From Parcubacteria group bacterium Gr01-1014_8 (GTDB lineage Bacteria > Patescibacteriota > Minisyncoccia > Phycocordibacterales > UBA2100): DNA of 64,000 nucleotides. Shown in pieces: positions 9,886 to 57,015 of the stretch. The stretch spans positions 192,001-256,000 of the forward strand of contig VMGC01000001.1 of assembly GCA_007376385.1 (NCBI GenBank), given 5' to 3'. Position 1 is the stretch's first letter, and every line of letters begins with the position of its first letter. Both the position numbers and the translations under genes were made by a program. The notes under the pieces were generated by a model. It was not told the origin of the DNA. It did not search any database and was given only the letters and a program-made list of their open reading frames with translations.

Positions 9886-9924
9886 TTCGACCCATTTCTC
9901 CTAGAACATTGAGGATTTTAGCCC

Positions 9925-9952
9925 CGCCAGGCCGCAGCCTGGCGGGGCTCCG
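9925..9952 (+). terminator. hairpin gccccgccaggccgcagcctggcggggc
   Basis: 11-bp perfect GC-rich stem downstream of 9190..9885. Weak T-tract. Confidence 0.45.
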
Positions 9953-10132: not shown

Positions 10133-11110
10133 CGTGCCAAATACGATAGTCCTTTGACAACTGAAGAACGACACAATTCTTGCTCGTAAGAGCAGGAGAA
10201 AAAGAAAGAATAAGAAATTTTCTGAAAAGAAAATTTCTTTTCGCGCCGTCGCTCGCGGATCATGAGAATAAATTCTCGCGATACCGCTCGCTCGGCGCGA
10301 TCAACAACATTGATTCGGCTATTGTCTTTGGCCGGATCAGTGCAGGAAAAAATGTATTTTTGCGCAACCACTTTTCACAACCACAAGGTTGTAGAAAAGT
10401 GCAGTCCTGTAATAGGGAAAGCAAAAATCAAAAACAATCCGCCTTCGCACACGTTGTGTGCTATGGCGGGACAAAGAAAGTCCCGACACGCCAAAAGGTG
10501 TGACGGGCGCAATGCTTGTCCGTCTTGTAGCGGACAAGCAAAGTAATAAACCAATAACGCGGTTCTCAAATTTCCAAACGGGAATTCTGAGAAAGGGCGT
10601 GCGGCGGATGCCTTGACAGAAGAAGGCGATGAAGGACGCAGTTCGGCGGCGATACGCTTCGGGGAGGTGCCAAGCAACCTTCGATCCGGAGATTTCCGAA
10701 TGGGGAAACCCCATAGAGCAACCCTCTATGACTCATGCTCTAAACAGCATAGAGAGCAGACCTTGGGAAGTGAAACATCTCAGTACCAAGAGGAAAAGAG
10801 ACCAATAGGTATTCCCTTAGTAGCGGCGAGCGAAACGGGAAAAGCACAAACTCAGCCACAAAATCGAAGCGCGATTTATTTCGCGAATCGATTTTGGGGA
10901 TGGGGGTTATAAGGCTACAGCGCTAGCAATAGGTAGAGTAAAAAAATGCTTAGTTAGAGGAAGCGCCTGGGAAGGCGCGCAACACAGGGTAATAGCCCCG
11001 TACTCGAAAACGAAGCATCTCTATGGCTGTAGTTCTTGAGTAACTCGAGACATGAATAGCTCGGGTGAATTTGCCGGGACTAACCGGTAATGCTACATAC
11101 TTCTTCTGAT

Positions 11111-11153
<43 letters not shown>

Positions 11154-12660
11154 GGTGAGGGGAGTGAAATAGACCTGAAACCGCATGCCTACAAGGAGTC
11201 GGAGCGGGCACCACAGTGCTCTTGAAATTTTTTGCAGAATTTTTGCAAAAGATCTTTTCGGGTGCAGTGTGGTGTCCGTCACGGCGTGCCTATTGAAGAA
11301 TGAGCCAACGAGTTAATGCATACAGCTGGCTAAGCCCTTTTCGGGTGGAGCCGTAGCGAAAGCGAGTGTGAATAGCGCGACTATAGTTGTATGTATTAGA
11401 CCCGAAGCCAGGTGAGCTACCCATGAGCAGGCTGAAGTTTATAGAAATATAGATGGAGGGCCGAACCCGTAGATTGTGCAACATCTTGGGATGACTTGTG
11501 GGTTGGAGTGAAAAGCTTATCGAACCTGGTAATAGCTGGTTCTCTCCGAAAGAGCTTTCGGGCTCGCGTCATGGATTACATATGGGGGTAGAGCACTGGA
11601 AGAAGCGGATAGGCCGAAAGGCCACTGCCTCTATCAAACTCCGAATACCATATGCGTACCGTGGCAGTTAGACGATGGGGGCGAAGCTCCATTCGTCAAA
11701 AGGGAAACAGCCCAGACCGCCAGTTAAGGTCCCTAAATCTATGCTCAGTGCATTTCCAAGGAGGTGAAATTTCACAGACAGTGAGGATGTTGGCTTAGAA
11801 GCAGCCACCATTCAAAGAAAGCGTAACAGCTCACTCACTCAGAGATTTCGCGCCACAAATGATCGGGGCTTAAGCATAGTACCGAAACTGCGGATTCAGT
11901 ACGTCTTCGGATGTACTGTCTGGTAGGAGAGCGTTCTCTGTGCGATGAAGGTAAAGGGGTGACCCATGCTGGAGCGCAGGGAAGTGAAAATGTTGGCACG
12001 AGTAACCGCAAGGCAGGTGAGATTCCTGCCCGCCGAAAGAACAAGGTTTCCTTCGCAATGGAGATCAACGAAGGGTTAGTCGGTCCTAAGCCAATGGCGA
12101 ATGCCGCAGGCGATGGATTCATGGTTAATATTCCATGACTCGGAATTGGTGCGATGGAGTGACGGAGTGTTGTACCTCAAGCATATTATGGATTTATGTT
12201 CAGGCCGTGAGGATGCTTTTCAGGAAAATCCGGAGAGCACAGTCCAAGCGGAGTGGAAAAGTGGAGGCCTCGGCCGAAACTGATTTGAGGGAGCACGCTT
12301 CCAAGAAAAACTTCTAAGCTTATAACCAATGACGAACCGTACCGCAAACCGACACAGGTGTTCTGGTCGAATAGACTAAGGCGAACGGGTGAGAGATGCT
12401 CAAGGAACTCGGCAAAAAAGTGGCCGTACGTTAGCAATAAGGCCTGCCCAATACAGTGATGTATGGGGCCGCAGATAATTATTCCCAGGCGACTGTTTAC
12501 CAAAAACACAGCTCCCTGCAAACTCGTAAGAGGAAGTATAGGGGGTGATGCCTGACCAATGCCGGAAGGTCAAGTGTGGTCGGTCTCATATAGCAATATA
12601 TGTTGCTGGCACTACATAAGCCCCGGTCAATGTCGGCGATAACTATAATCGTCCTAAGGT

Positions 12661-13360
12661 TTCCCGCTTAAGAAATTGAGCGGGGAAGGACTGGGACGAT
12701 CATAGAATCGAATAAACAGCGAAAGAAAATACCAAAGCTGCCTCTCTGTGCAGTAATGCACAAGTGGTCCTAGAAACATGGCTATATGCTGGAAACCCTA
12801 TGGTATAATTATTCCATAGATGAGTAATCAGCAGGAAAGGCCAGAGATGAAAGGGTGGATCGTCGGTTTTACCGACGGCGAAGGATGCTTTTCAATAAGC
12901 ATGTTTCGCAACAAAACCACCAAGTTTGGTTGGCAAGTATTCCCAGAGTTTGTAATAACTCAGGGAAAGAAAAGTTTGCCAGCACTCGAAACTTTCCAAA
13001 ACTTCTTTAAGTGCGGAAAGATATACGAGAACGCTAGGTACGATAATCATCGTGAATATCTGTATCGATACTGTGTACGATCAATTTCGGATTTGCGGGA
13101 GAAAATAATCCCGTTTTTTCGAAAAAACAAATTGTATACAGCCAAACAAAAAGATTTCGAACTGTTTGCAGATGTCATAGAAAAGGTGTATCGAAAAGAA
13201 CATCTTTTAGAATCGGGATTGCGAGCGATAGCGCGCAAGATCGAACAGATGAATCGCAAGAAGAAATCAACATTTCTGGAATCCTCAGAGACTACACGCC
13301 ATGCCCCTAAATCTAAATAAGATCGGGTGAAGATATAGTCCAAAGGTAATAGGAACCTAG
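12661..13360 (+). mobile_element. group I-type intron in 23S at E. coli L1917-equivalent site, carrying a LAGLIDADG homing endonuclease gene
   Basis: Inserted between GGTCCTAAGGT and AGCGAAATTCCT. Contains ORF 12820..13320. Confidence 0.7.
12820..13320 (+). CDS. LAGLIDADG homing endonuclease (intron-encoded)
   Basis: 166 aa; motif GWIVGFTDGEGCFSI near N-terminus. Confidence 0.85.
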   Translation: MSNQQERPEMKGWIVGFTDGEGCFSISMFRNKTTKFGWQVFPEFVITQGKKSLPALETFQNFFKCGKIYENARYDNHREYLYRYCVRSISDLREKIIPFFRKNKLYTAKQKDFELFADVIEKVYRKEHLLESGLRAIARKIEQMNRKKKSTFLESSETTRHAPKSK

Positions 13361-13372
13361 AGCGAAATTCCT

Positions 13373-14142
13373 AGAAGACTGGGACTATCAGTCAAAAACT
13401 ACTGATAGCAAATTCTGCTATATGCTGGAAACTCCGAGTATCCAACAGTACCCTGACGAAATGGAAGGGTAAAAATCTGTTGGTGCGGACAATCAGCAGG
13501 GAAGTCGTAATTGACCCCTCAACGACTACACGCAGAACTCCACGAAGCTCATCAATCCGATGCTGTTTCGGGAGGTGATATAGTCTGAACTGCATGGCGA
13601 CATGCAGAGTTTGGCTCGCGCCAAACCGCTTCAAACAAATTGAAGTCATTATTCTCACTAGAGAATAGTAAGTAACAGAATGTGTCTGGTAACTGGATTG
13701 CCAGTTAGTACAGCGATGTACTACAAAAGATCCGCCTGTCAGCAATGACGGTAGTAATTCGGCTTATAACGGTGGAATCCTACTCGGAGCACTTTAGACG
13801 AGGTGCGTTGATGAAAGGATAATACCGTGGGAAGTCTTGTGAGTTTCGTGGAGGGCAACCTCCGTGCGAGAGCGCCTCGCCCGGTTGAGGGCGGTCGGTC
13901 GGCATTGGTGCTGACTGTCTGATCTGGAGCCTCTGTCCAGGCTCTCGCATCAATCTTCTCATCATGGTGATGGGAACTTCCACGAAACTCGCAATGACCC
14001 CGTAACGACTTAGCGCGAAAGCGCTGGAAGTGTCTCAAAAACACTTAACACGCCGACTCTGCAATGCGCAGAAGAAGATATAGTCTAATGCCCGAAGTAA
14101 TTCGGGGAGAGTGTCATATTGCGCGAAATATGACGATCAAAC
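13373..14142 (+). mobile_element. second intron-like insertion in 23S (L1931-equivalent), no intact ORF
   Basis: A 12-nt exon AGCGAAATTCCT separates it from intron 1; exon resumes near TGAAGTTCAGACGCGCACGAATGG. Only short or antisense ORFs inside. Boundaries approximate. Confidence 0.45.
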
Positions 14143-14700
14143 TCAAATGAAGTTCAGACGCGCACGAATGGTATAACGACTTGGGAACTGTCTCGAGCAT
14201 TTGCCCGGTGAAAATACAAGGGCGGTGAAGATGCCGCCTTCCTGCAGCTAGACGAAAAGACCCCAGAAGCTTTACTGTAATTTGGTATTGAGGATACGAT
14301 TTTTCCGCGTAGCGTAAGTGGGAGGCTTTGAAGCAAGGATCTCGGTTCTTGTGGAGCCGTCAATGCAACACCACTCCTAAAAATTGTATTTTCTAACTTC
14401 CATAGCAAAACTGTGGAAAGACAGTACCTGATGGACAGTTTCGGTGGGGCGCTGTCCTCCTAAAAAGTAACGGAGGAGCCTATTAAGGTCACCTAGGTGC
14501 GAATGGAAACCGTACCGGTAGTGCAATGGCAAAAGGTGGCTTGACTGCGAGTCGTACGTGACAAGCAGGCGCGAAAGCGGAGCATAATGAACCGATGGTT
14601 CGCATTAGATGCGACCAAAGATTAACGGATAAAAGTTACTCTGGGGATAACAGGCTGGTTTCGCCTAAGAGTCCAAATCGACGGCGAAGTTCGGCACCTT

Positions 14701-15552
14701 AACAAATCGGGGTGCGACGTAAGCAATTACGTAGCTTGGCTCACACATGAGACCAAGAACCAACATGTGTGCAGTTCAAATCGTGGCTTATAACGGTGAA
14801 CTCCATGGTATTATAGAACAATCGTTCTATAGTATATGGACAATACCGTGGGAAGTTTAACTCAATTACAGCGATCAATAATTATCGGTAGTCTCTTAGG
14901 TGATGGCTACTTACGGATCGTACCGCGCAGATACAATGCGTTTCTCGAGATCAATCATTCGTATTCACAAAAAGAATATGTTGATTGGACATTCGAGATG
15001 CTCAAATCGATCTGTAGAAGCGGTCCGAAGATGCGAAACGGAAATGGTGTGCGAATTGCATACCGTTTTACGACTCGTCAAATGCCGGAAATCACCGAAT
15101 TGTTCAAAGTGTTTTATGCCAATGGCAAGAAATAAATTTCGAACAATTTAAGATTAGATCCGATAATGCTTGCTGTATGGTTCATGGATGATGGAAGTAG
15201 GTGTAGCGTTGAGAACGTGTACCTTAATACTCAGCAGTTTAATTTCGATGATCAAGAAAAATGCAGGGCAATGCTCATGCGGCTTGGTATCGAAACAACT
15301 CTCAATAAGGACAAGAAGTATTTGAGAGTGAGGATAAAAACATCCTCAATCCCAAAACTTCATAAAATTATCTCACCGCACATCATTCCATCCATGAAAT
15401 ATAAATTGGGTTATAACCCCGTAGAGACTCGCTTCTTCGGAAGCGGAGTTACTGACTCTGTAATGAGCAGTAGCTAACACGCCACCTCCTTTCAATAGAA
15501 AGGATGATGATATAGTCCGATCCTTCCAGTAATGGAAGAAAAAATGACATTG
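14701..15552 (+). mobile_element. third intron-like insertion in 23S (near L2500-equivalent, GGCACCT|CGATGTCGGCTC) with split LAGLIDADG gene
   Basis: Exon resumes at CGATGTCGGCTCATC (~15553). Contains ORFs 14836..15135 and 15166..15477. Confidence 0.7.
14836..15477 (+). pseudogene. double-motif LAGLIDADG homing endonuclease interrupted by an in-frame TAA (two ORFs: 14836..15135 and 15166..15477)
   Basis: First half carries IIGSLLGDGYL; second half carries VWFMDDGS. Spacing fits a single ~210 aa enzyme. Stop codon at 15136-15138. Confidence 0.6.
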
Positions 15553-15786
15553 CGATGTCGGCTCATCTTAGCGCGGGGCTGGAGAAGGTCCCAAGCGTAT
15601 GGCTGTTCGCCATTTAAAAAGGTACGTGAGCTGGGTTCAAACCGTCGTGAGACAGGTTGGTCTTAATCTGCTGTAGGCGTTGATTCTTGAGGAGACTCAT
15701 TTTTAGTACGAGAGGACCGAAATGAACTGACCTCTGGTCTGGGGGCTGTAGTACCAACTGCATCGCCCCGTAGCTATGTCGGGATT

Positions 15787-15819
<33 letters not shown>

Positions 15820-16004
15820 GACTCCAAGATTAGGAATCGTTATAGACTCGTGGGAGATGACCACGTTGATAGGCACCAGGTGGAAGCGCAGTAATGCGTT
15901 GAGCCGAGGTGTACTAATTAGTCGACAGAATTCTCGAAAGGAATTTTGGGAGTCGCGATACTGGTTTATTGCGACGAGCGAGGACGAAGCGAAAATTTAT
16001 TGGC

Positions 16005-16094
16005 GACGTAGGGCGAGAGAAGCGAAAATGTACTCATTTTCATTTCCGAGCCGAGGAGCCAAAATAGGGTCGAATACCCTTTATTTTCATTTCG
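16005..16094. repeat. ~92 nt dispersed repeat, copy A (between 23S and 5S)
   Basis: ttattggcgacgtagggcgagagaagcgaaaatgtactcattttcatttccgagccgaggagcc...ctttattttcat; ~88% identical to 29877..29970. Confidence 0.8.
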
Positions 16095-16260
16095 TCCGAG
16101 CGAAGGCGCAACAAAGGGTTACTACCCTTTATTGCGAAGTAACAAAACGCATTCTTTCTTTCTGTGGTTCGCCGAAGCTCGCACAAGCGAGCGTAGGAGA
16201 CTGCATTGTGTCGTTCTTCGGTTGCCGAAGGCAAAGTTCATTGCAATTGAAGTTTTTGTT

Positions 16261-16363
16261 CTGGTGATTTATCGCTGGGGTCACACCTGTTCTCATTCCG
16301 AACACAGTAGTTAAGCCCAGTTGAGGCGATGGTAGTCGCAAGGCGAGAGTAGCTAGTCGCCAG
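16261..16363 (+). rRNA. rrf: 5S ribosomal RNA
   Basis: ctggtg...CCGAACACAGTAGTTAAGCCC...GAGAGTAGCTAGTCGCCAG with terminal helix pairing. Confidence 0.85.
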
Positions 16364-16379
16364 AACAAAGATTTCAAAG

Positions 16380-20466: not shown

Positions 20467-21299
20467 ATGCTTCGGATTCGGCTCTTGCAAATCGAGATTC
20501 GAATCTGGGGTCGTCAGGGCTCCAGCCGGCTTGAGCCGGAAACTCGAATGGTCTGGAGGACCCATGGGAAAGTATCCCAAACCTGATCCTTTTGCTGCGC
20601 CATTTGGCATCAACTGTCGGCATGCCTCCGATTCGGAGCCGAGGAAGCCGAAAGTCCGCCAACGCCGGAGGATGAAAATCCGAAAAGCGAAAAAAAGCAA
20701 AGCATAAGGCAGCGCTCCACCGCCTCCTTTTAAGCTAAGGCTCGTCGCGCGACTCGTTCGTGCGGCGGCCTTTCTTTATAAAAACTCAGCCGTAGCGCGA
20801 GGAGCGCTACGGCCAAGGACGTCACTCCCAGATGATTTCGACATACTCGTGTGGGCGAGCTGGGTCGACACCTGCGGGACGCAGAACCACCCTCCGTGGG
20901 GTGCGCCGCCTCCGAACGGGTGAGTTCGGGGCAGACCCCGACGCTTTCGCGTCGTCAATCCGGCTCAGCGCCAAGATTTCTTGTTTATCAGTCGTGCAAT
21001 TCCTGGGCATTTGCCACCTCGCTTTCAGCACAGGCCGTGTTCCACCGGAATGGTCATACACGGAGTCTATGCGGAGTATTCTGCACAGGCCCCGGGCCAC
21101 CACAAGGGCACTTCCATTTTTGTAACGCCTTGCGGCTAACAAAAATTGGTCGCACCCATTAAAAAAGCCCTCCTAGGTGGAGGGCTTGTCTGTATCTACT
21201 TTATTTTTCTCAACTAGACACAAGCAAAACCTCCACCAGAGTGGGTAAGAAGGAGGCTAAGGAGAAGACCTTTTATATACTTGTCGGACATGGATTTGA

Positions 21300-29876: not shown

Positions 29877-29970
29877 CTTATTAGCGACGTAGAGCGAGTG
29901 AAGTGAAAGTGTACTCATTTTCATTTCCGAGCCGAGGAGCTAACAAGGGTAGAATATCCTTTATTTTCAT
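29877..29970. repeat. ~92 nt dispersed repeat, copy B (upstream of folD)
   Basis: ttattagcgacgtagagcgagtgaagtgaaagtgtactcattttcatttccgagccgaggagc...ctttattttcat; pairs with 16005..16094. Confidence 0.8.
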
Positions 29971-47671: not shown

Positions 47672-48340
47672 AGAAGGCTTGAACTTTGACAACTGAATAT
47701 GAAAAATTGTACGCAAAACCAAAAAAGAAATTGGTAAGTAAAATTGTTGCCGGCGCTCGCTCGGAATTGAAAATTTATTTTCATTTCGCTCGCTCGCATG
47801 GGCAATAAGAATTCTTGTTGTTCTCAAGTTAGGAACAATAAGACACACACAAAAGCAAGAAAACAGAAAATACATATTGAGGTTCCAGGAGGATCTCATG
47901 TGTAAGTAAACAGTAATAACGAGACAAAAGATCCCCCAAGGGGACTGCGACTTTCTACGATTCAAATGAATCGTGAAAGTCGGGAGATATACATTCTTTT
48001 GTTTCGTCCATCCTAGAGATATTGAAGCAATTCAAATTCTTGAAAGTGGTGTAAAAACCATTTTTACTTAGAGTTTGATCCTAGCTCAGGGTGAATGCTG
48101 GCGGTATGGATAAGGCATGCAAGTCGAATGGGTTAGACCCATGGCAGACGAGGTAGTAACAGGTAGGTACGTCCCCGGAAGTCGGGCATAACCAGCCGAA
48201 AGGTTGGATAATTCCCGATGGTCTCGCAAGAGTAAAGATTTATCGCTTCCGGAGCGGCCTGCTTTGTATCAGCTTGTTGGTGAGGTAACGGCTCACCAAG
48301 GCTATGACGCATAGGGGACCTGAGAGGGTGACCCCCACCG

Positions 48341-48377
<37 letters not shown>

Positions 48378-48891
48378 TGCAGCCGAGAATATTCGACAAT
48401 GGGCGAAAGCCTGATCGAGCGATACCGCGTGGTGGATGAAGCGCTTCGGCGCGTAAACACCTTTTATGAGGGAAGAAATTTTGACGGTACCTCATGAATA
48501 AGGGGCTCCTAACTCTGTGCCAGCAGGAGCGGTAATACAGAGGCCCCAAGCATTACCCGGAATTACTGGGCGTAAAGGGTGCGTAGGTGGTCATATTAGT
48601 CGCCTGTTAAAACCCACGGCTCAACTGTGGAACCGCGGGCGAAACGGTATGACTAGAGAGAGTGAGAGGTGAATGGAACTCATGGTGTAGGGGTGAAATC
48701 CGTTGATATCATGGGGAACACCGAAAGCGAAGGCAATTCACTGGCACTTTTCTGACACTCAAGCACGAAAGCGTGGGTAGCGAACGGGATTAGATACCCC
48801 GGTAGTCCACGCCCTAAACGATGATCGCTGGATTTGGGGAGTATCGACCCTCTCCGAGTCGAAGCTAACGCGTTAAGCGATCCGCCTGGGT

Positions 48892-48923
<32 letters not shown>

Positions 48924-49386
48924 AGACGGGGGCTTGCACAAGTGGTGGAGCGTGTGGCTCAATTCGTCGCTAAGCGAAGAACCTTACCAGGGCTAGAAAT
49001 CCAGCTGCATACTTTGGGAAACCTTAGTAGCCTTCGAGGGTGCTGGACAGGTGATGCATGGCTGTCGTCAGTTCGTGGTTTGAATCGTTCCCTTCAGTGG
49101 GGTAACGAACGCAACCCTCGTTGCCTGTTATATTTGTCAGGCGAGACTGCCCCCTCACGGGGGAGGAAGGTGAGGATGACGCCAAGTCAGCATGTCCCTC
49201 TGATGTCCTGGGCTGCACACGCGCTACAATCGCCGTTACAACGAGGCGCAACGTCGTAAGACCGAGCAAATCTTTCAAAAGCGGCGCCAGTTCGGATTGA
49301 GGTCTGCAACCCGACCTCATGAAGCCGGAATCACTAGTAATCGCGGGTCAGCCACACCGCGGTGAATACGTTCTCAAGCCTTGTAC

Positions 49387-50231
49387 TCACAATAAAAGCG
49401 CACAGCAGTGTACATATCTATGCGGTTAAAATCCGCACCTCTCTTTCGTACAGAGAGCGTAGCAGAAGGATAGTTGTTATCCGCGAGGATGATAATGGAG
49501 GATCCTAATGCAAAGAGCAGCCATTTCGCACAAAAGCCGACCGACCTGTCAATGGGTGGTGAGGATAGGGAAGGTCCTAGAAAGGCAAGAAAATGGATGC
49601 CTAGAACAGATACGCACATAACCTGTGGAGATCTGACGCTGTTATCCCAAAGATGGGATATGATGAATCTGACGCAGCGTCAGAAGTCAGCTGAGTCATA
49701 GTATTTGCAGATATGCAAAAAAGGACTCACTCAAAGCAAAATCTTAGTCCAGATTATGTTGTTGGACTCGTAGATGGTGAAGGAAGCTTTACTGTCTACG
49801 TAAGAAATCCAGACATAGAGAAAAAAGTCGCTCGAAGAGTGGTTGTAGAGCCAAAATTCTACATAAAACTAATCGAACGCGACAAAGATATTCTCTATGC
49901 ACTTCGAGATTTCTTCGGATGTGGAAGTATTTACTTCCAAAAAGATAATCGTCCGAATCATCAACATTGCTATCGTTACGAGGTCTTCCGGTGGGAAGAA
50001 CTTCAAACGATAATCATTCCGTTCTTCAAGCGGCACGTTCTCAAATTCGCGTCAAAACGGCACGACTTTGAAGTGTTTTGCATGATGATGGAGCTTCTCA
50101 AAAAAGAAGCACATCGAACGGAAAAAGGACTACGAGAGTTGTTTAAGTTGAAACAACGCATGCATTGAGCTCGCGTAGTGCGGGAAATCCGCTCGCTACG
50201 TGGGAACATCAATTCTTAGATTCAAGAAGAT
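49387..50231 (+). mobile_element. intron-like insertion in 16S (after CTTGTAC, ~E. coli 1392) carrying a LAGLIDADG gene
   Basis: Interrupts the universally conserved TTGTACACACCGCCCGTC. Contains ORF 49713..50168. Confidence 0.65.
49713..50168 (+). CDS. LAGLIDADG homing endonuclease (intron-encoded)
   Basis: 151 aa; YVVGLVDGEGSFTVYV motif. Similar architecture to the 12820..13320 protein. Confidence 0.85.
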   Translation: MQKRTHSKQNLSPDYVVGLVDGEGSFTVYVRNPDIEKKVARRVVVEPKFYIKLIERDKDILYALRDFFGCGSIYFQKDNRPNHQHCYRYEVFRWEELQTIIIPFFKRHVLKFASKRHDFEVFCMMMELLKKEAHRTEKGLRELFKLKQRMH

Positions 50232-50480: not shown

Positions 50481-50600
50481 AAGTGGATAATGGACGGAAC
50501 AAAAGAGTGTGTATATAGATCAGGTTATAGGTTACAGCTTGTAGCTTGTAGGAAATGCGAACAAACAAAAACGCCGACTCGATATGAGCACGGCGTTTTT
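50481..50600. repeat. hairpin-ended intergenic repeat, copy 1
   Basis: aatggacggaacaaaagagtgt ... caaaaacgccgactcgatatgagcacggcgttttt; shares both ends with copy 3. Confidence 0.75.
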
Positions 50601-50968: not shown

Positions 50969-50984
50969 CTCGGCAGGGAAAAGA

Positions 50985-51070
50985 GTGTGTATGAAGAATA
51001 GCTGGTAGCTTGTAGCCAGCAGCTTGCAGCAAATACAAAACGCCCGAAAGGGTGGTTTTGTGTTGCAGCG
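50985..51070. repeat. hairpin-ended intergenic repeat, copy 2 (degenerate)
   Basis: aaaagagtgtgtat ... gtagcttgtag ... caaaacgcccgaaagggtggttttg; same modules as copy 1. Confidence 0.55.
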
Positions 51071-52778: not shown

Positions 52779-52805
52779 TAAAGATATGTGTGACCTTAGG
52801 AAAGG

Positions 52806-52938
52806 CGGGGGAATGGACGGAACAAAAGAGTGTCCCGACGCGCGAGAGCGGTCGGGATCCCGACCGAAGCGTCGGGATGTATTGAAGAAAATGCTACAAC
52901 CAAAAACGCCGACTCAACATGAGCACGGCGTTTTTTTG
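52806..52938. repeat. hairpin-ended intergenic repeat, copy 3
   Basis: aatggacggaacaaaagagtgt, then two tandem hairpins with identical stems (tcccgac...gtcggga twice), then caaaaacgccgactcaacatgagcacggcgttttttt. Confidence 0.75.
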
Positions 52939-53657
52939 ATTTGGATTTGATATTCCTCCCGGCGGCAATGCAGGCACTGCCGCCAGGAAGACTTTCCCTC
53001 ACTGGGTTGGTCGTTTCTCAAAAGCCGTTGGCTTGGCTACGGTTTTTCGTGCCCACTGGCGTGACCGCCGGTTGGCTCCGTTGCTGGGCTTGCGCCCGCG
53101 CCTCTTCTTTCGAGTACTTGTCCTGTGCCCCATTCGGCACTCCCTATGTTCGAGTAAGCATTTGCAAAGAGCGGATTCCCTCTGCCACGTCGAACGTAGC
53201 ACGTATGTAGGTGCTTTGTCACGCTTTACTAAAGTAGAGTGGTGTATACGAACATAAAAAACACCGAGACAATTCTTAGGCACAGCAGCGCTTGAATGAA
53301 CGTGTCCCAACTAAGCACCGCCGACCCGGGAGGGTCGGCGGTGCTGGTTGTTGCCAGAGAGTGGGTATCCAGCGCGAGGGCTACTTACGTCCGTGCTTCT
53401 GTTTCTTCTTCCTCTTGCCGGCATTCTTCCCGCAACGAGGATTCCAATTGGAAGCCTGACGTGCTTTCGCCTCCGAATGGTTGTGACCGCGATGGCCCAT
53501 TTTCGTACCTCTCAACGTGGCATCATTGCCGCGGCTAAAGTAGCACATGAGCCATGGTTTTGCTACCATCGCGGGTACAAGCGCGTTTAGCTCCGGCGGA
53601 TGATACAGACACATCGGTCGCAGCGAGGCGCGGTTTGGAGTAGATTGGTTTGATAAC

Positions 53658-53729
53658 GCGCGTTTAGCTCAGTGGTAGAGCATCCCTCTGATAAGGGGAA
53701 GGCCGTAGGTTCAATCCCTACAACGCGCA
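53658..53729 (+). tRNA. tRNA-Ile (anticodon GAT)
   Basis: Cloverleaf folded by hand: acceptor GCGCGTT/AACGCGC, D arm GCTC-AGTGGTA-GAGC, anticodon stem TCCCT/GGGGA with loop CTGATAA, T arm GTAGG-TTCAATC-CCTAC. No encoded CCA. Confidence 0.8.
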
Positions 53730-53933
53730 CAAAAGACAGAAACACCTGCCGCAACGGCCAGGTTTTCTGCTTTTGTGGGAGCCGGAGCGATGTTGCGCGA
53801 GTACGCGCAACCGCGAGGCCGGGTCGGGAAAATTTGTTTGGGACGACAAACAAATTATTCCTGACCACAAGTCCATGTGTGACCACACTTCGACTCAAGA
53901 CGCACTCAGTGTACACTGAGTGCGACAATATCT

Positions 53934-55240: not shown

Positions 55241-55735
55241 ATGGACAGAGACTTGAAGTTGCGGCAAGAGCCGAATTTTAGTATTCGTTTGCTTGGGAAA
55301 GAGGACGGCGCTCAACTTCTTGCGCTATATACAGCAAACCTCTCTCGGCTCCAAGAACTTGGTCTGCACGAAGCGCGCATTCCTGTCGAAGAGCAAATTG
55401 ACGACGTTCTCACGCCAAAAGAAGGCAGCGATCTGTTTGGAATTTTTGATCAACAGGAGTTGATTGGAGCCGTTTACATAACACGAGATTTTAGCGCGCC
55501 GCGAAGTGCCCAAATTGGTCGTTTAATAGATTCTCATTATCAGAATAAGGGAATCGGCGGTAGGGCGCTCACCAGGATTATGAACGAACTTTCAAATCGT
55601 TATGACCGTTTTTGGGCGATGACAAGGGAGGATAACGTTCTTGCAAGAAAATCACTTGAACGAGCGGGTTTTGCGGCGATGTCAGAACCGTCAGACGATA
55701 GCCCGAATGTACTGTATGTTTGGGGTCGGCAATAA
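55241..55735 (+). CDS. GNAT-family N-acetyltransferase
   Basis: 164 aa; QNKGIGGRALTRIMNEL (acetyl-CoA-binding motif A). Confidence 0.7.
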   Translation: MDRDLKLRQEPNFSIRLLGKEDGAQLLALYTANLSRLQELGLHEARIPVEEQIDDVLTPKEGSDLFGIFDQQELIGAVYITRDFSAPRSAQIGRLIDSHYQNKGIGGRALTRIMNELSNRYDRFWAMTREDNVLARKSLERAGFAAMSEPSDDSPNVLYVWGRQ

Positions 55736-55752
55736 AGGGGCGTCATTTAGGT

Positions 55753-57015
55753 TTACGTGACTCTTACAGCCTTAGCTGATTTCATCGCTTTTTCTCGCGC
55801 TTTTCTTACATCCTTTCCAATTGCAAGAGCAACTCCCATACGGCGGTGGTCAGGGGAAGACGGTTTTCCGAAAATGCGTACCCACGTGCCTGGGGTTTTG
55901 AGCGCTTTTTCGACGCCAATATATACGGGATTATCCGTTTTCATGTTCGCGAGAATTGCGACACTTGCGCCTGGACAGCACGGAATTTCAGCCTGCCTGC
56001 CGCGCCCGCGGCGCAGGCAGGGAATCGGCAGACCAAGAATTGCACGCACATGCAATTCCATCTCGCTCATATTCTGCGAGACCATCGTGACCATGCCGGT
56101 GTCATGCGGGCGAGGGGACACTTCCGAGAACCAAACCATATCGCCCTTGACGAATAGCTCTACGCCAAAAATGCCGCGGCCTGCTTTTCTGCCTGCCTGC
56201 CGCGACGCACGCGGCGCAGGCAGGCAAAGTTCGTTCACGACTTTTTTTGCAATGTGCTGCGCCCGGGCAAGCGCTTTTTTCGACATCGGATGCGGTTGCC
56301 AGCTTTCGCGATAATCACCATCGATCTGAATATGCCCGACAGGCGCACAGAAACTTATCCCGCCCGCATGGCGAACGGTAAGCAACGTAATCTCATAATC
56401 AAAATTTATCTTTCCCTCGACAATAACTTTTCCAGTTTTTCCGCGTCCTGCCTCCATCGCATGCTCCCACGCCTTCTTTAATCCCGATGGATTTTTGACT
56501 TGAGACTGTCCATGACCGGACGATGACATAGTCGGCTTGATAAAGCAGGGGAATCCAACAGCCTCGGCTCCCGCTTCAAGCTCTTCCAAACTTCCCGCAA
56601 ACCGATACGGCGACGTCGGCAACTTCAACGTCTCGGCTGCAAGTTGCCGAATGCCTTGTCTGTCCATCGTAAGACGCGTCGCGCGCGCCGTCGGGATTAC
56701 GGTCCAACCTTCTTTTTCCAGTTCGACGAGCGTATCCGTCGCGATTGCTTCGATCTCGGGGACGATAAAATCCGGCTTCTCTTGTTCGACTATTTTTCGG
56801 ATCATCGTCCCGTCTCGCATGTTAAACACGTGCGACCGATGCGCCACCTGCATCGCCGGCGCGTTCTCGTATCTATCGCACGCAATCACCTCCACCCCCA
56901 ACCGCATCGTCTCGATAACGACCTCCTTTCCAAGTTCACCGCTGCCGAGCAGGAGTATTCTGGTAGCTGATGGTTTCAGGGGTGTTCCGAATCTCGTCAT
57001 GACCCAGAATAACAT
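55753..57015 (-). CDS. purT: formate-dependent phosphoribosylglycinamide formyltransferase (GAR transformylase 2, ATP-grasp) with two in-frame palindromic insertions
   Basis: 420 aa; [13 protein letters not shown]...PEIEAIATD...[15 protein letters not shown]. Two extra ~13 aa segments ([16 protein letters not shown]; [12 protein letters not shown]) encoded by GC-rich palindromes. Confidence 0.8.
55989..56022. repeat. GC-rich palindromic element copy A inside purT
   Basis: cagcctgcctgccgcgcccgcggcgcaggcaggg (imperfect inverted repeat). Confidence 0.7.
56190..56226. repeat. GC-rich palindromic element copy B inside purT
   Basis: ctgcctgcctgccgcgacgcacgcggcgcaggcaggc. Confidence 0.7.

Follow-up and report, generated by a model that had tools for sequence, protein, structure and literature searches.

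The purT gene of Parcubacteria group bacterium Gr01-1014_8, which belongs to the candidate phyla radiation (CPR), raises the question of how two short and very GC-rich palindromes came to lie in frame within an otherwise conserved enzyme, formate-dependent glycinamide ribonucleotide (GAR) transformylase. The window analysed here is a stretch of 64 kb from a 407,897-bp contig of this bacterium, and our view of the host genome is limited to it. We consider it probable, at roughly 0.6, that the two palindromes, here called E1 and E2, were inserted independently of each other and belong, as miniatures without cargo, to an inverted-repeat family that spreads horizontally and is associated with a GIY-YIG nuclease.

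The host gene of both elements, purT (55753-57015, minus strand), encodes a protein of 420 aa that is matched to E. coli PurT (1eyz) with an E-value of 3.6e-135 in a HMMER alignment, and that is 100% identical to an entry named 'phosphoribosylglycinamide formyltransferase 2' (P0001). A Logan assembly contig of SRR8863434 carries an identical purT. E1 is a 30-nt hairpin element at 55992-56021 on the minus strand (CCTGCCTGCCGCGCCCGCGGCGCAGGCAGG on the plus strand, CCTGCCTGCGCCGCGGGCGCGGCAGGCAGG in mRNA sense), built in mRNA sense as CCTGCCTG-CG-CCGCG-GG-CGCGG-CAGGCAGG. E2 is a 33-nt hairpin element at 56192-56224, also on the minus strand (CCTGCCTGCCGCGACGCACGCGGCGCAGGCAGG on the plus strand, CCTGCCTGCGCCGCGTGCGTCGCGGCAGGCAGG in mRNA sense), built as CCTGCCTG-CG-CCGCG-TGCGT-CGCGG-CAGGCAGG. 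Each can be folded into an outer stem of 8 bp, a bulge of 2 nt, an inner stem of 4-5 bp and a short loop, and each is directly followed by a conserved C, at plus strand base 55991 for E1 and 56191 for E2. The initial annotation of this DNA had described two imperfect palindromes in purT, about 200 nt apart and richer in GC than their surroundings. Both statements hold, since the distance from start to start is 200 nt, and the GC content is 0.87 for E1 and 0.82 for E2, against 0.44-0.53 for the window. The peptides quoted at the time are present in the PurT translation, and both inserts keep the frame of the 420-aa open reading frame (ORF), as claimed. The added length, which had been put at about 13 residues per insert, has to be corrected to 10 for E1 (C333-A342) and 11 for E2 (L265-G275). 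The two elements have arms of 14 and 15 nt in common, yet they are read in different frames and encode unrelated peptides. The exact 14-mer arm GCCTGCCTGCCGCG is found in the 64 kb at E1 and E2 only; when up to two mismatches are allowed, there are 3 matches in the window, compared to 0.51 expected from shuffles.

E1 and E2 are insertions into PurT. The HMMER alignment to E. coli PurT has gaps of 14 and 9 residues precisely at the two segments, and when the 33 nt and 30 nt are taken out, C-(R/G)-K-x-G-R-G and IP-EIP, as typical of the family, are left. Both sites are empty in the closest PurT homologues (P0002, P0003 and P0005, about 85-89% identical; loci L004 and L125) and in 15 other related purT loci, and E2 is without counterpart in 16 related purT loci. 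Segments shared with unrelated orthologues, which the initial annotation had named as the sign of native loops, did not come to light: one related PurT (P0004, locus L002) shares E1, and closer relatives are empty. The supposed placement in loops agrees with an AlphaFold model of the window PurT (overall mean predicted local distance difference test score, pLDDT, of 81), in which both inserts lie between secondary structure elements, in regions of low confidence. The loop that holds E2 (264-280) joins helix 246-263 to strand 281-290, and its residues 269-276 have a pLDDT below 50. E1 is found between helix 318-327 and strand 342-344, and the mean pLDDT of residues 331-340 is 59.

We regard E1 and E2 as an element, and not as native loops, because the same DNA is found in unrelated genes elsewhere. 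A scan of GTDB, with one genome per species and the pattern CCTGCCTGCGCCGCN{0,30}GCGGCAGGCAGG (26 fixed bases), returned at least 120 loci. In shuffled sequence from about 1 Mb of element-bearing loci, there was no match even to a looser pattern. The same pattern matched 17 loci in viral contigs of IMG/VR, whereas PLSDB plasmids, searched with a 34-nt hairpin, had none. The matches listed represent more than 15 phylum-level groups, and many of the carriers are metagenome-assembled genomes. The groups listed include Omnitrophota, Latescibacterota (complete chromosomes), Planctomycetota with Brocadiaceae, Verrucomicrobiota, Lentisphaerota, Acidobacteriota, Methylomirabilota, Chloroflexota, Nitrospirota, Bipolaricaulota, WOR-3, Armatimonadota, several delta-, beta- and gammaproteobacterial groups, Parcubacteria and Saccharibacteria. 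Carriers in culture include Thiorhodospira sibirica ATCC 700588 and Pelomicrobium sp., and the GC content of the listed host loci ranges from 0.38 to 0.73. A restriction to one lineage, as in Rickettsia, is thus not seen for this family, which occurs in CPR bacteria and in more than 15 other phylum-level groups among the matches listed.

The family arms are CCTGCCTGCGCCGCG and CGCGGCAGGCAGG, 13-15 nt long, with a C after the second arm. The short forms of 27-54 nt consist of the two arms and a short variable loop, and the copies listed have lengths of 26-54 nt. Loop diversity is high, with 87 distinct sequences in the 131 unique copies listed, and the arm segments used in the search are 0-28 bases apart. 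Among these copies, no variant is more frequent than the exact 30-mer of E1, which occurs at 9 independent loci or more, and the exact 33-mer of E2 is found at least at 5 independent loci of other phyla, including one in T. sibirica ATCC 700588.

Two observations concern relatives and carriers of the hairpin. In the same loci as the main hairpin (L044, L049, L072, L082, L102, L108 and others) there is a sister family, the ends of which are CCTGTCTG...CAGGCAGG or CCTGCCTG...CAGACAGG, whereas its inner arms are GCGTGCG/CGCACGC. Its T/C asymmetry leaves a G-T (G-U) wobble on one strand and a C-A mismatch on the other, which hints at strand-specific folding. In the Latescibacterota chromosome OZ240239.1, a 33-nt hairpin lies inside a repeat of about 200 nt that is present in at least 7 copies (L019, L022, L023, L052, L060, L068 and L112), with identical flanks of about 84 nt to its left and about 100 nt to its right. 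Here, the hairpin is apparently carried by, or the seed of, a larger repeat.

How can such an element be tolerated in coding DNA? The arms contain a stop codon in no frame, and as a result a copy would be read as part of the host protein if its length is divisible by three. Such lengths are found for 120 of the 131 unique copies listed (p = 2e-44), a bias that points to translation through the element, and most of the listed copies lie within long open frames. Among the loci listed, there are 75 host ORFs with a length of 250 aa or more, and the Pfam families that they match number 83. These include topoisomerase, DnaE (DNA polymerase III alpha), LigA (NAD-dependent ligase), TsaD, NAD synthase, a release factor, UvrC and amidase; proteins of restriction-modification or defence are numerous, and a phage tape-measure protein is also found. 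Relative to the host ORF, 33 of the listed copies are in sense and 38 in antisense orientation, and all six frames are used. The pattern argues for a DNA element with stop-free arms that would be translated as part of its host.

Explanations at the level of RNA or of known repeats were considered and set aside. A function of the hairpin in RNA is unlikely because both orientations are about equally frequent relative to the host ORF, with all six frames in use. There was no match to Rfam intron families at the insertion site, and a permissive Rfam scan of 55700-56500 for known RNA families gave chance-level hits only (E > 4). A CRISPR repeat is ruled out by the single copy per locus and the lack of an array.

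The link to a nuclease comes from a long form of the element. In L030, an in-frame GIY-YIG segment of 291 nt is bracketed by the same pair of arms within a type I HsdR-like ORF, and 282-nt versions of this arm-flanked segment are found in L043 and L045. Exact arms are also present in the DNA of L222, L223 and L224, at a distance of 282 or 291 nt. In all six loci, the ORF is placed between the arms of a single inverted repeat, with no additional half-sites nearby. The cargo is in frame, lacks start and stop codons of its own, and spans about 80 aa with no separate DNA-binding domain. It matches Pfam GIY-YIG, is 31-42% identical to standalone 'GIY-YIG nuclease family proteins' of the YazA type, and has the UPF0213 proteins 1zg2 and 1ywl as nearest solved structures, followed by SLX1. 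It is the sole large cargo found between the arms in about 1 Mb of loci. In L057, a GIY-YIG segment adjoins a complete 20-nt hairpin instead of lying inside one.

A profile search for relatives of the cargo in a set of 5.8 billion proteins identified 68 protein clusters, at least 43 of which have arm-encoded peptides beside the domain, typically in the layout LPAPRP...GIY-YIG...ARQAG(G). The arms keep an almost constant orientation and frame with respect to the cargo, with LPAP...RQAG in the large majority of the 43 clusters. The residues around some of the cargo domains belong to type I HsdM, HsdS or HsdR, to a type IIG-like methyltransferase or to ketoacyl synthase, and full-length modules sit mostly in type I restriction-modification genes. 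The insertion site in HsdM is common to P0126, P0132, P0135 and P0158. In IMG/VR, neither a full-length pattern with a gap of 250-280 nt nor the GIY-YIG cargo profile led to a viral counterpart, as the former had no match and the latter no confirmed locus. The selfish palindromic element proposed in the initial annotation is supported by in-frame insertions in loops and by the same DNA in unrelated genes; missing from that picture were the spread over many phyla and the nuclease-bearing long form.

Next to two of the full-length GIY-YIG elements, the host gene is partly duplicated. In L222 (1930-2420) and L224 (3930-4440), its final 15-30 codons occur as two copies that use different codons, so that the ends read LYGLTEDEIKIIENK* and LY[element]GLTPEEIEMVEGKKHA* in one case, and ...NSFGFGGKNSALVVKRYES* and [element]...NSFGFGGKNSALVVRKYES* in the other. 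The upstream copy completes the host gene intact, and the element is in the downstream copy, a separate overlapping ORF. The duplication may reflect the integration mode of the element or an escape of the host.

The purT gene itself behaves as a hotspot. In a Kaiserbacteria-like PurT from another sample (P0004, locus L002, ERZ27254756), the codon occupied by E1 is the same as in the window, and the loop of this copy holds a second, nested palindrome of 27 nt. This site, site 2 of purT, is occupied in the window and in L002 and empty in the closer P0002, P0003 and P0005. In a neighbour-joining tree of 120 PurTs, the inserts at site 2 are scattered, and the nearest relatives of the occupied sequences are empty; repeated gain or loss at a hotspot is therefore indicated. 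The sharing of E1 by P0004 and the window would fit such repeated gain or loss, and not a native loop. A minimal version of 18 nt, CCTGCCTGTGCAGGCAGG, is found at a third purT site (P0078, L003), where P0094 has the insert LPAQAGA, seen in the protein only. The lengths of the loops that hold E1 and E2 vary among other Kaiserbacteria-like PurTs as well. With two copies in a single 1.26-kb gene and none in the remaining 63 kb, the insertions in the window are clustered. Long PurT homologues (P0031, P0053, P0076 and P0079) have no full-length element and exceed the window PurT by N-terminal extensions only, and no full-length GIY-YIG element is present among the 120 homologues.

Inserts other than E1 also occur at site 2. 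In L126 and L127, a different 30-nt GC-rich imperfect hairpin (CCCTCCTTCGCCAAGGCTTCGGAGGG...), which encodes LLRQGFGGLAS, is located at the exact codon position of E1. The same or a similar peptide is found in several PurT branches that do not group together, and another insert at site 2, seen in the protein only, encodes PASPRLRRAS. PurTs with such non-E1 inserts are P0009, P0010, P0021, P0030, P0047, P0052, P0025 and P0065. The CCCTCCTTCGCCAAGGCTTCGGAGGG hairpin is about 60% identical to E1, and may be either a decayed E1 or a second element family at the same hotspot.

Recurrent and compound insertion is seen outside purT, too. Two methyltransferases that are 62% identical (L013 and L042), from Acidobacteria and Thermodesulfobacteriota, carry the element at the same codon. 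Nested or adjacent copies are found in L002, L013, L030 and L082, and multi-layer palindromes in L069, L082 and L107. As a separate observation, the HsdR-like ORF of a WOR-3 bacterium (L030:3958-7494, 1179 aa) has four further hairpin-like inserts in addition to the full-length GIY-YIG element; the inserts noted are HLPAPQSEAARQAG, DLPAQAGG and LSAGQAGG, together with the full-length copy's own arms. This ORF is an extreme case of insertion clustering in one gene.

How might the short and long forms be related? The short hairpins consist of both ends of the long element, joined by a short loop, which suggests the relation of a miniature to an autonomous parent. The full-length form of 282-291 nt would then be the parent, with its UPF0213-like GIY-YIG domain between the same two arms. 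The nuclease may recognise the hairpin or cruciform made by the arms, by analogy with the hairpin-specific single-strand Ssn GIY-YIG nucleases or with structure-specific cleavage of the SLX1 type. The resulting break, followed by repair or copying, would put the element at new or homologous sites, in a manner closer to homing than to transposition. Short copies might be moved in trans or might arise through loss of the cargo, and would survive where 9-18 added residues land in a tolerant surface loop, as in PurT.

Several points weigh against this reading. In 786 kb of purT-flanking DNA (82 loci), hairpins of the CCTGCCTG type are absent outside purT, and with two or more insertions confined to purT, site- or gene-specific homing seems a closer match than free transposition. 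A nuclease of the cargo type is missing from the window and from the purT loci that were fetched, and the link to the nuclease therefore exists at the level of the family only. One full-length element (L223, protein P0133) has its arms reversed relative to the cargo. A GIY-YIG nuclease has no covalent intermediate and no known strand-transfer activity, which leaves the insertion chemistry unexplained. The copy number per genome looks low, and since exact arms were demanded, the scan is no measure of arm conservation or abundance. Flanks of the 128 copies listed share no base in 76 cases, one in 41, two in 9 and three in 2, which we judge to be no more than chance for short GC-rich flanks, so that there is no target-site duplication. 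Target preference is weak in the same copies. A conserved tetranucleotide 5' of the palindrome was not found in this set. In favour of the nuclease link, on the other hand, a C follows the right arm in 88 of the 128, E1 and E2 among them.

Among the other explanations, the one that survives best, though we think it unlikely, takes the short hairpins as scars of full-length elements that have lost their cargo, for example by replication slippage across the paired arms, and that are not mobile themselves. The short copies do resemble arms joined directly, as a comparison of CCGCGA+GC+GTCGCGG with the full-length ends ...CGCCGCGACC and GGTCGGGCGCGG... illustrates, their loops are very diverse, as would suit scars, and full-length elements occupy specific sites in conserved genes. 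The model is weakened because the very same short variants, down to their loops, are met again in genes and phyla that are unrelated (apart from the 30-mer, a 27-mer at 8 loci or more and a 33-mer at 7 or more, both lower bounds). A 39-nt subfamily with related, AAAGCGAAGCGGC-like loops is likewise found in different hosts. Moreover, the 120 PurT homologues offer no full-length element from which E1 and E2 could have been left behind, and the kinds of genes with short copies are far more numerous than those with full-length copies.

It is still less probable, in our estimate, that the hairpin spreads independently of the nuclease, either by an unseen transposase of the IS200/IS605 or RAYT (REP-associated tyrosine transposase, where REP stands for repetitive extragenic palindrome) kind or by homologous recombination after DNA uptake, and that hairpin loops are the target of the GIY-YIG gene, which would be a selfish module in its own right. 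Loops do accept insertions, as seen from the nested palindrome in the E1 copy of L002 and from the multi-layer palindromes, and both the flipped arms in L223 and the GIY-YIG segment beside the complete hairpin in L057 speak for this model as well. However, the model is weakened because arm orientation and frame are nearly fixed relative to the cargo in the 43 clusters. This nuclease is, in addition, the only large cargo between the arms in the loci that were covered, and a recurrent transposase family was not found among the clustered ORFs around 137 copies (5-8 kb each, with 5 of the top cluster representatives scanned against Pfam).

It is very improbable that E1 and E2 are native loops, that is, lineage-specific extensions selected for PurT function, in which the palindromic DNA is incidental: the same two loops do vary in length in Kaiserbacteria-like PurTs, but the closest relatives lack both segments, 30 and 33 nt are identical to DNA in unrelated genes of other phyla, and shared arms are read in different frames. 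An assembly or sequencing artefact, such as chimeric reads or adapter-derived hairpins, can be dismissed almost entirely, for although most carriers are metagenome-assembled genomes, the lengths are strongly biased to multiples of three, E1 recurs at the same site in an independent sample, an identical purT is on a Logan contig, and copies are present in cultured isolates and complete long-read chromosomes.

Our preferred reading, a miniature of a nuclease-associated inverted-repeat element, has a wider form, to which we give slightly less than even odds. It would make the family a previously undescribed, pan-bacterial class of mobile elements, with an autonomous form of about 285 nt, in which a stop-free, in-frame GIY-YIG domain of the UPF0213 type is bounded by inverted repeats of about 15 nt, and with a miniature form. 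Both would persist unspliced in proteins, including essential ones, and would move between phyla, possibly on phages. A literature search by concept and by arm sequence, the coverage of which is incomplete, found no description of this hairpin family; matches to the arm sequence were to unrelated eukaryotic oligonucleotides only.

The closest published system is that of the Ssn nucleases and their NTS/SRM repeats, with differences in motif, architecture and location. Ssn proteins are small, single-domain GIY-YIG single-strand nucleases that are flanked by hairpin repeats of 20-50 nt (Chenal et al. 2025, Nat Commun, PMC11893778). In the NTS, binding of the nuclease depends most critically on the C that directly follows the palindrome, the sequence of the loop can be dispensed with, and the authors noted an IS-like architecture; complete hairpins with a 5' (C)GTC tag are present on both sides of the gene, and hundreds of copies are found around genes (PMC11893778). 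In both systems, a small GIY-YIG nuclease is physically associated with hairpin repeats, and the C after the right arm in 88/128 listed copies of our family is a further likeness. Unlike in the Ssn system, the nuclease ORF is here between the arms of one hairpin, and the unit and its miniatures are in frame within genes. The SRM pattern HGTCWYN(0-2)YYVSBRHN(0-5)WNVSBRGN(0-2)RNCYNB is matched by 0/131 of the copies listed, with 20 nt on either side, and E1 and E2 fail it on both strands. The cargo, for its part, was placed by Pfam GIY-YIG and by UPF0213 structures.

The label 'RPE-like', given to the elements at the outset, refers to Rickettsia palindromic elements (RPEs). According to the summary of Ogata et al. 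2000 and 2002 in PMC10969869, these are palindromic elements of about 150 bp, confined to Rickettsia, that are inserted in frame in unrelated housekeeping genes and translated with the host at fold-compatible positions. The label is apt as an analogy, since in that account, too, in-frame palindromic DNA lies in unrelated genes and is translated with them. It does not suit the size, which is 30 nt for E1, 33 nt for E2 and 27-54 nt for the family against about 150 bp, or the range, as the present hairpins are GC-rich and occur in many phyla, outside Rickettsia. The hairpin family also has a nuclease-bearing long form, whereas that summary, as far as it extends, mentions no nuclease associated with RPEs.

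More distant comparisons can be made with transposon-related repeats. REPs are species-specific, and the RAYT and IS200/IS605 enzymes are HUH Y1 transposases. Like REP and bacterial interspersed mosaic elements (BIMEs) with RAYT, and like IS200/IS605 elements, the present family has short GC-rich imperfect palindromes, an enzyme gene bracketed by repeats and no target-site duplication. Recognition of a single-strand hairpin is plausible for it as for them (cf. the discussion in PMC11893778). REPs are described in PMC3733652 as extragenic and of high copy number, most of them with a GTAG or CGTC tag at one end; set against that description, our hairpins are intragenic, with few seen per genome, occur across phyla, have no terminal tag and are associated with a GIY-YIG enzyme. 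With MITEs (transposable elements of the miniature inverted-repeat kind), the family shares terminal inverted repeats and the existence of a longer element with the same ends. It differs from MITEs of DDE transposons in the absence of target-site duplications, and in a long form that encodes a GIY-YIG nuclease and not a DDE transposase.

Homing endonuclease genes, both those in introns and inteins and freestanding ones of the GIY-YIG type, resemble the family in several respects. A selfish nuclease gene lies in conserved genes that are not destroyed by it, orthologues from distant lineages have it at one and the same site, whereas close relatives have empty alleles, and many of the hosts are DNA-metabolism or restriction-modification genes. 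Here, however, there would be no intron or intein to take the insert out, and the multiple-of-three bias indicates translation through the element. The nuclease of about 80 aa, the inverted-repeat ends and the miniature derivatives also set the family apart from classical homing endonuclease genes. The GC clusters of yeast mitochondria and the 'byp' elements of Magnusiomyces are short, mobile, GC-rich palindromes that invade coding regions of a lower-GC genome. Both are organellar, and byps are skipped by the ribosome, with lengths that are not bound to multiples of three. In this respect byps are unlike the hairpin family, with its strong multiple-of-three constraint.

The remainder of the window contains some features that are apart from the hairpin family. 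The 23S rRNA gene (10579-15938) spans 5.36 kb, compared to 2.9 kb of the model, with a group I intron at 13363-13607, and is followed by the 5S rRNA gene at 16260-16365. The 16S rRNA match (48063-49422) covers 1.36 kb only and is about 32 kb away from the 23S gene; after it comes a match to group II intron D1-D4 at 49639-49726. Interrupted and unlinked rRNA genes are typical of CPR genomes. A dispersed direct repeat of about 90 nt (15997-16090 and 29878-29970, 91-92% identity) has one copy between the 23S and 5S rRNA genes. A direct repeat of 40 nt (50561-50600 and 52896-52935, 93% identity) is terminator-like (AAAAACGCCGACTC...GAGCACGGCGTTTTT), and a further pair is located at 50501-50561 and 50979-51039. 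Upstream of tRNA-Ile (53658-53730), about 850 nt (52800-53650) are devoid of a convincing ORF and of an Rfam match at the gathering threshold. This stretch holds perfect GC-rich palindromes at 52849-52866 and 53314-53345 and may be a structured RNA or a spacer. Other perfect GC-rich palindromes of the window were considered as in-frame inserts and rejected: those at 9920-9949 and 20789-20813 are outside the listed ORFs of at least 100 aa, and the two in the 850-nt stretch lie where there is no convincing gene.

The family matters in the first place for the interpretation of proteins and their annotation. If our reading is right, short GC-rich 'odd loops' in proteins of uncultivated bacteria would often be translated bodies of mobile elements and not products of protein evolution. 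Gene callers split or extend host genes at the insertion sites, and many of the 'GIY-YIG nuclease family proteins' of 100-170 aa that were retrieved are flanked, on one side or on both, by residues that belong to subunits of type I restriction-modification systems. The insertion sites also provide a natural map of permissive loops, of use for structure prediction and protein engineering. Testable predictions follow for UPF0213 and Ssn-like nucleases, which are of interest as single-strand DNA tools (PMC11893778).

For the biology of the family and its hosts, the consequences would be broader. The miniature form, with 27-54 nt, would be among the smallest mobile elements known, and the long form would be a GIY-YIG-based, hairpin-ended element that is harmless to its host gene without an intron or intein. 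On the wider form of our reading, the widespread UPF0213/YhbQ/YazA nuclease family would also gain its first biological role. Finally, the identical 30- and 33-mers in a CPR bacterium and in the cultured Thiorhodospira may serve as a marker of DNA exchange among lineages of groundwater and sediment.

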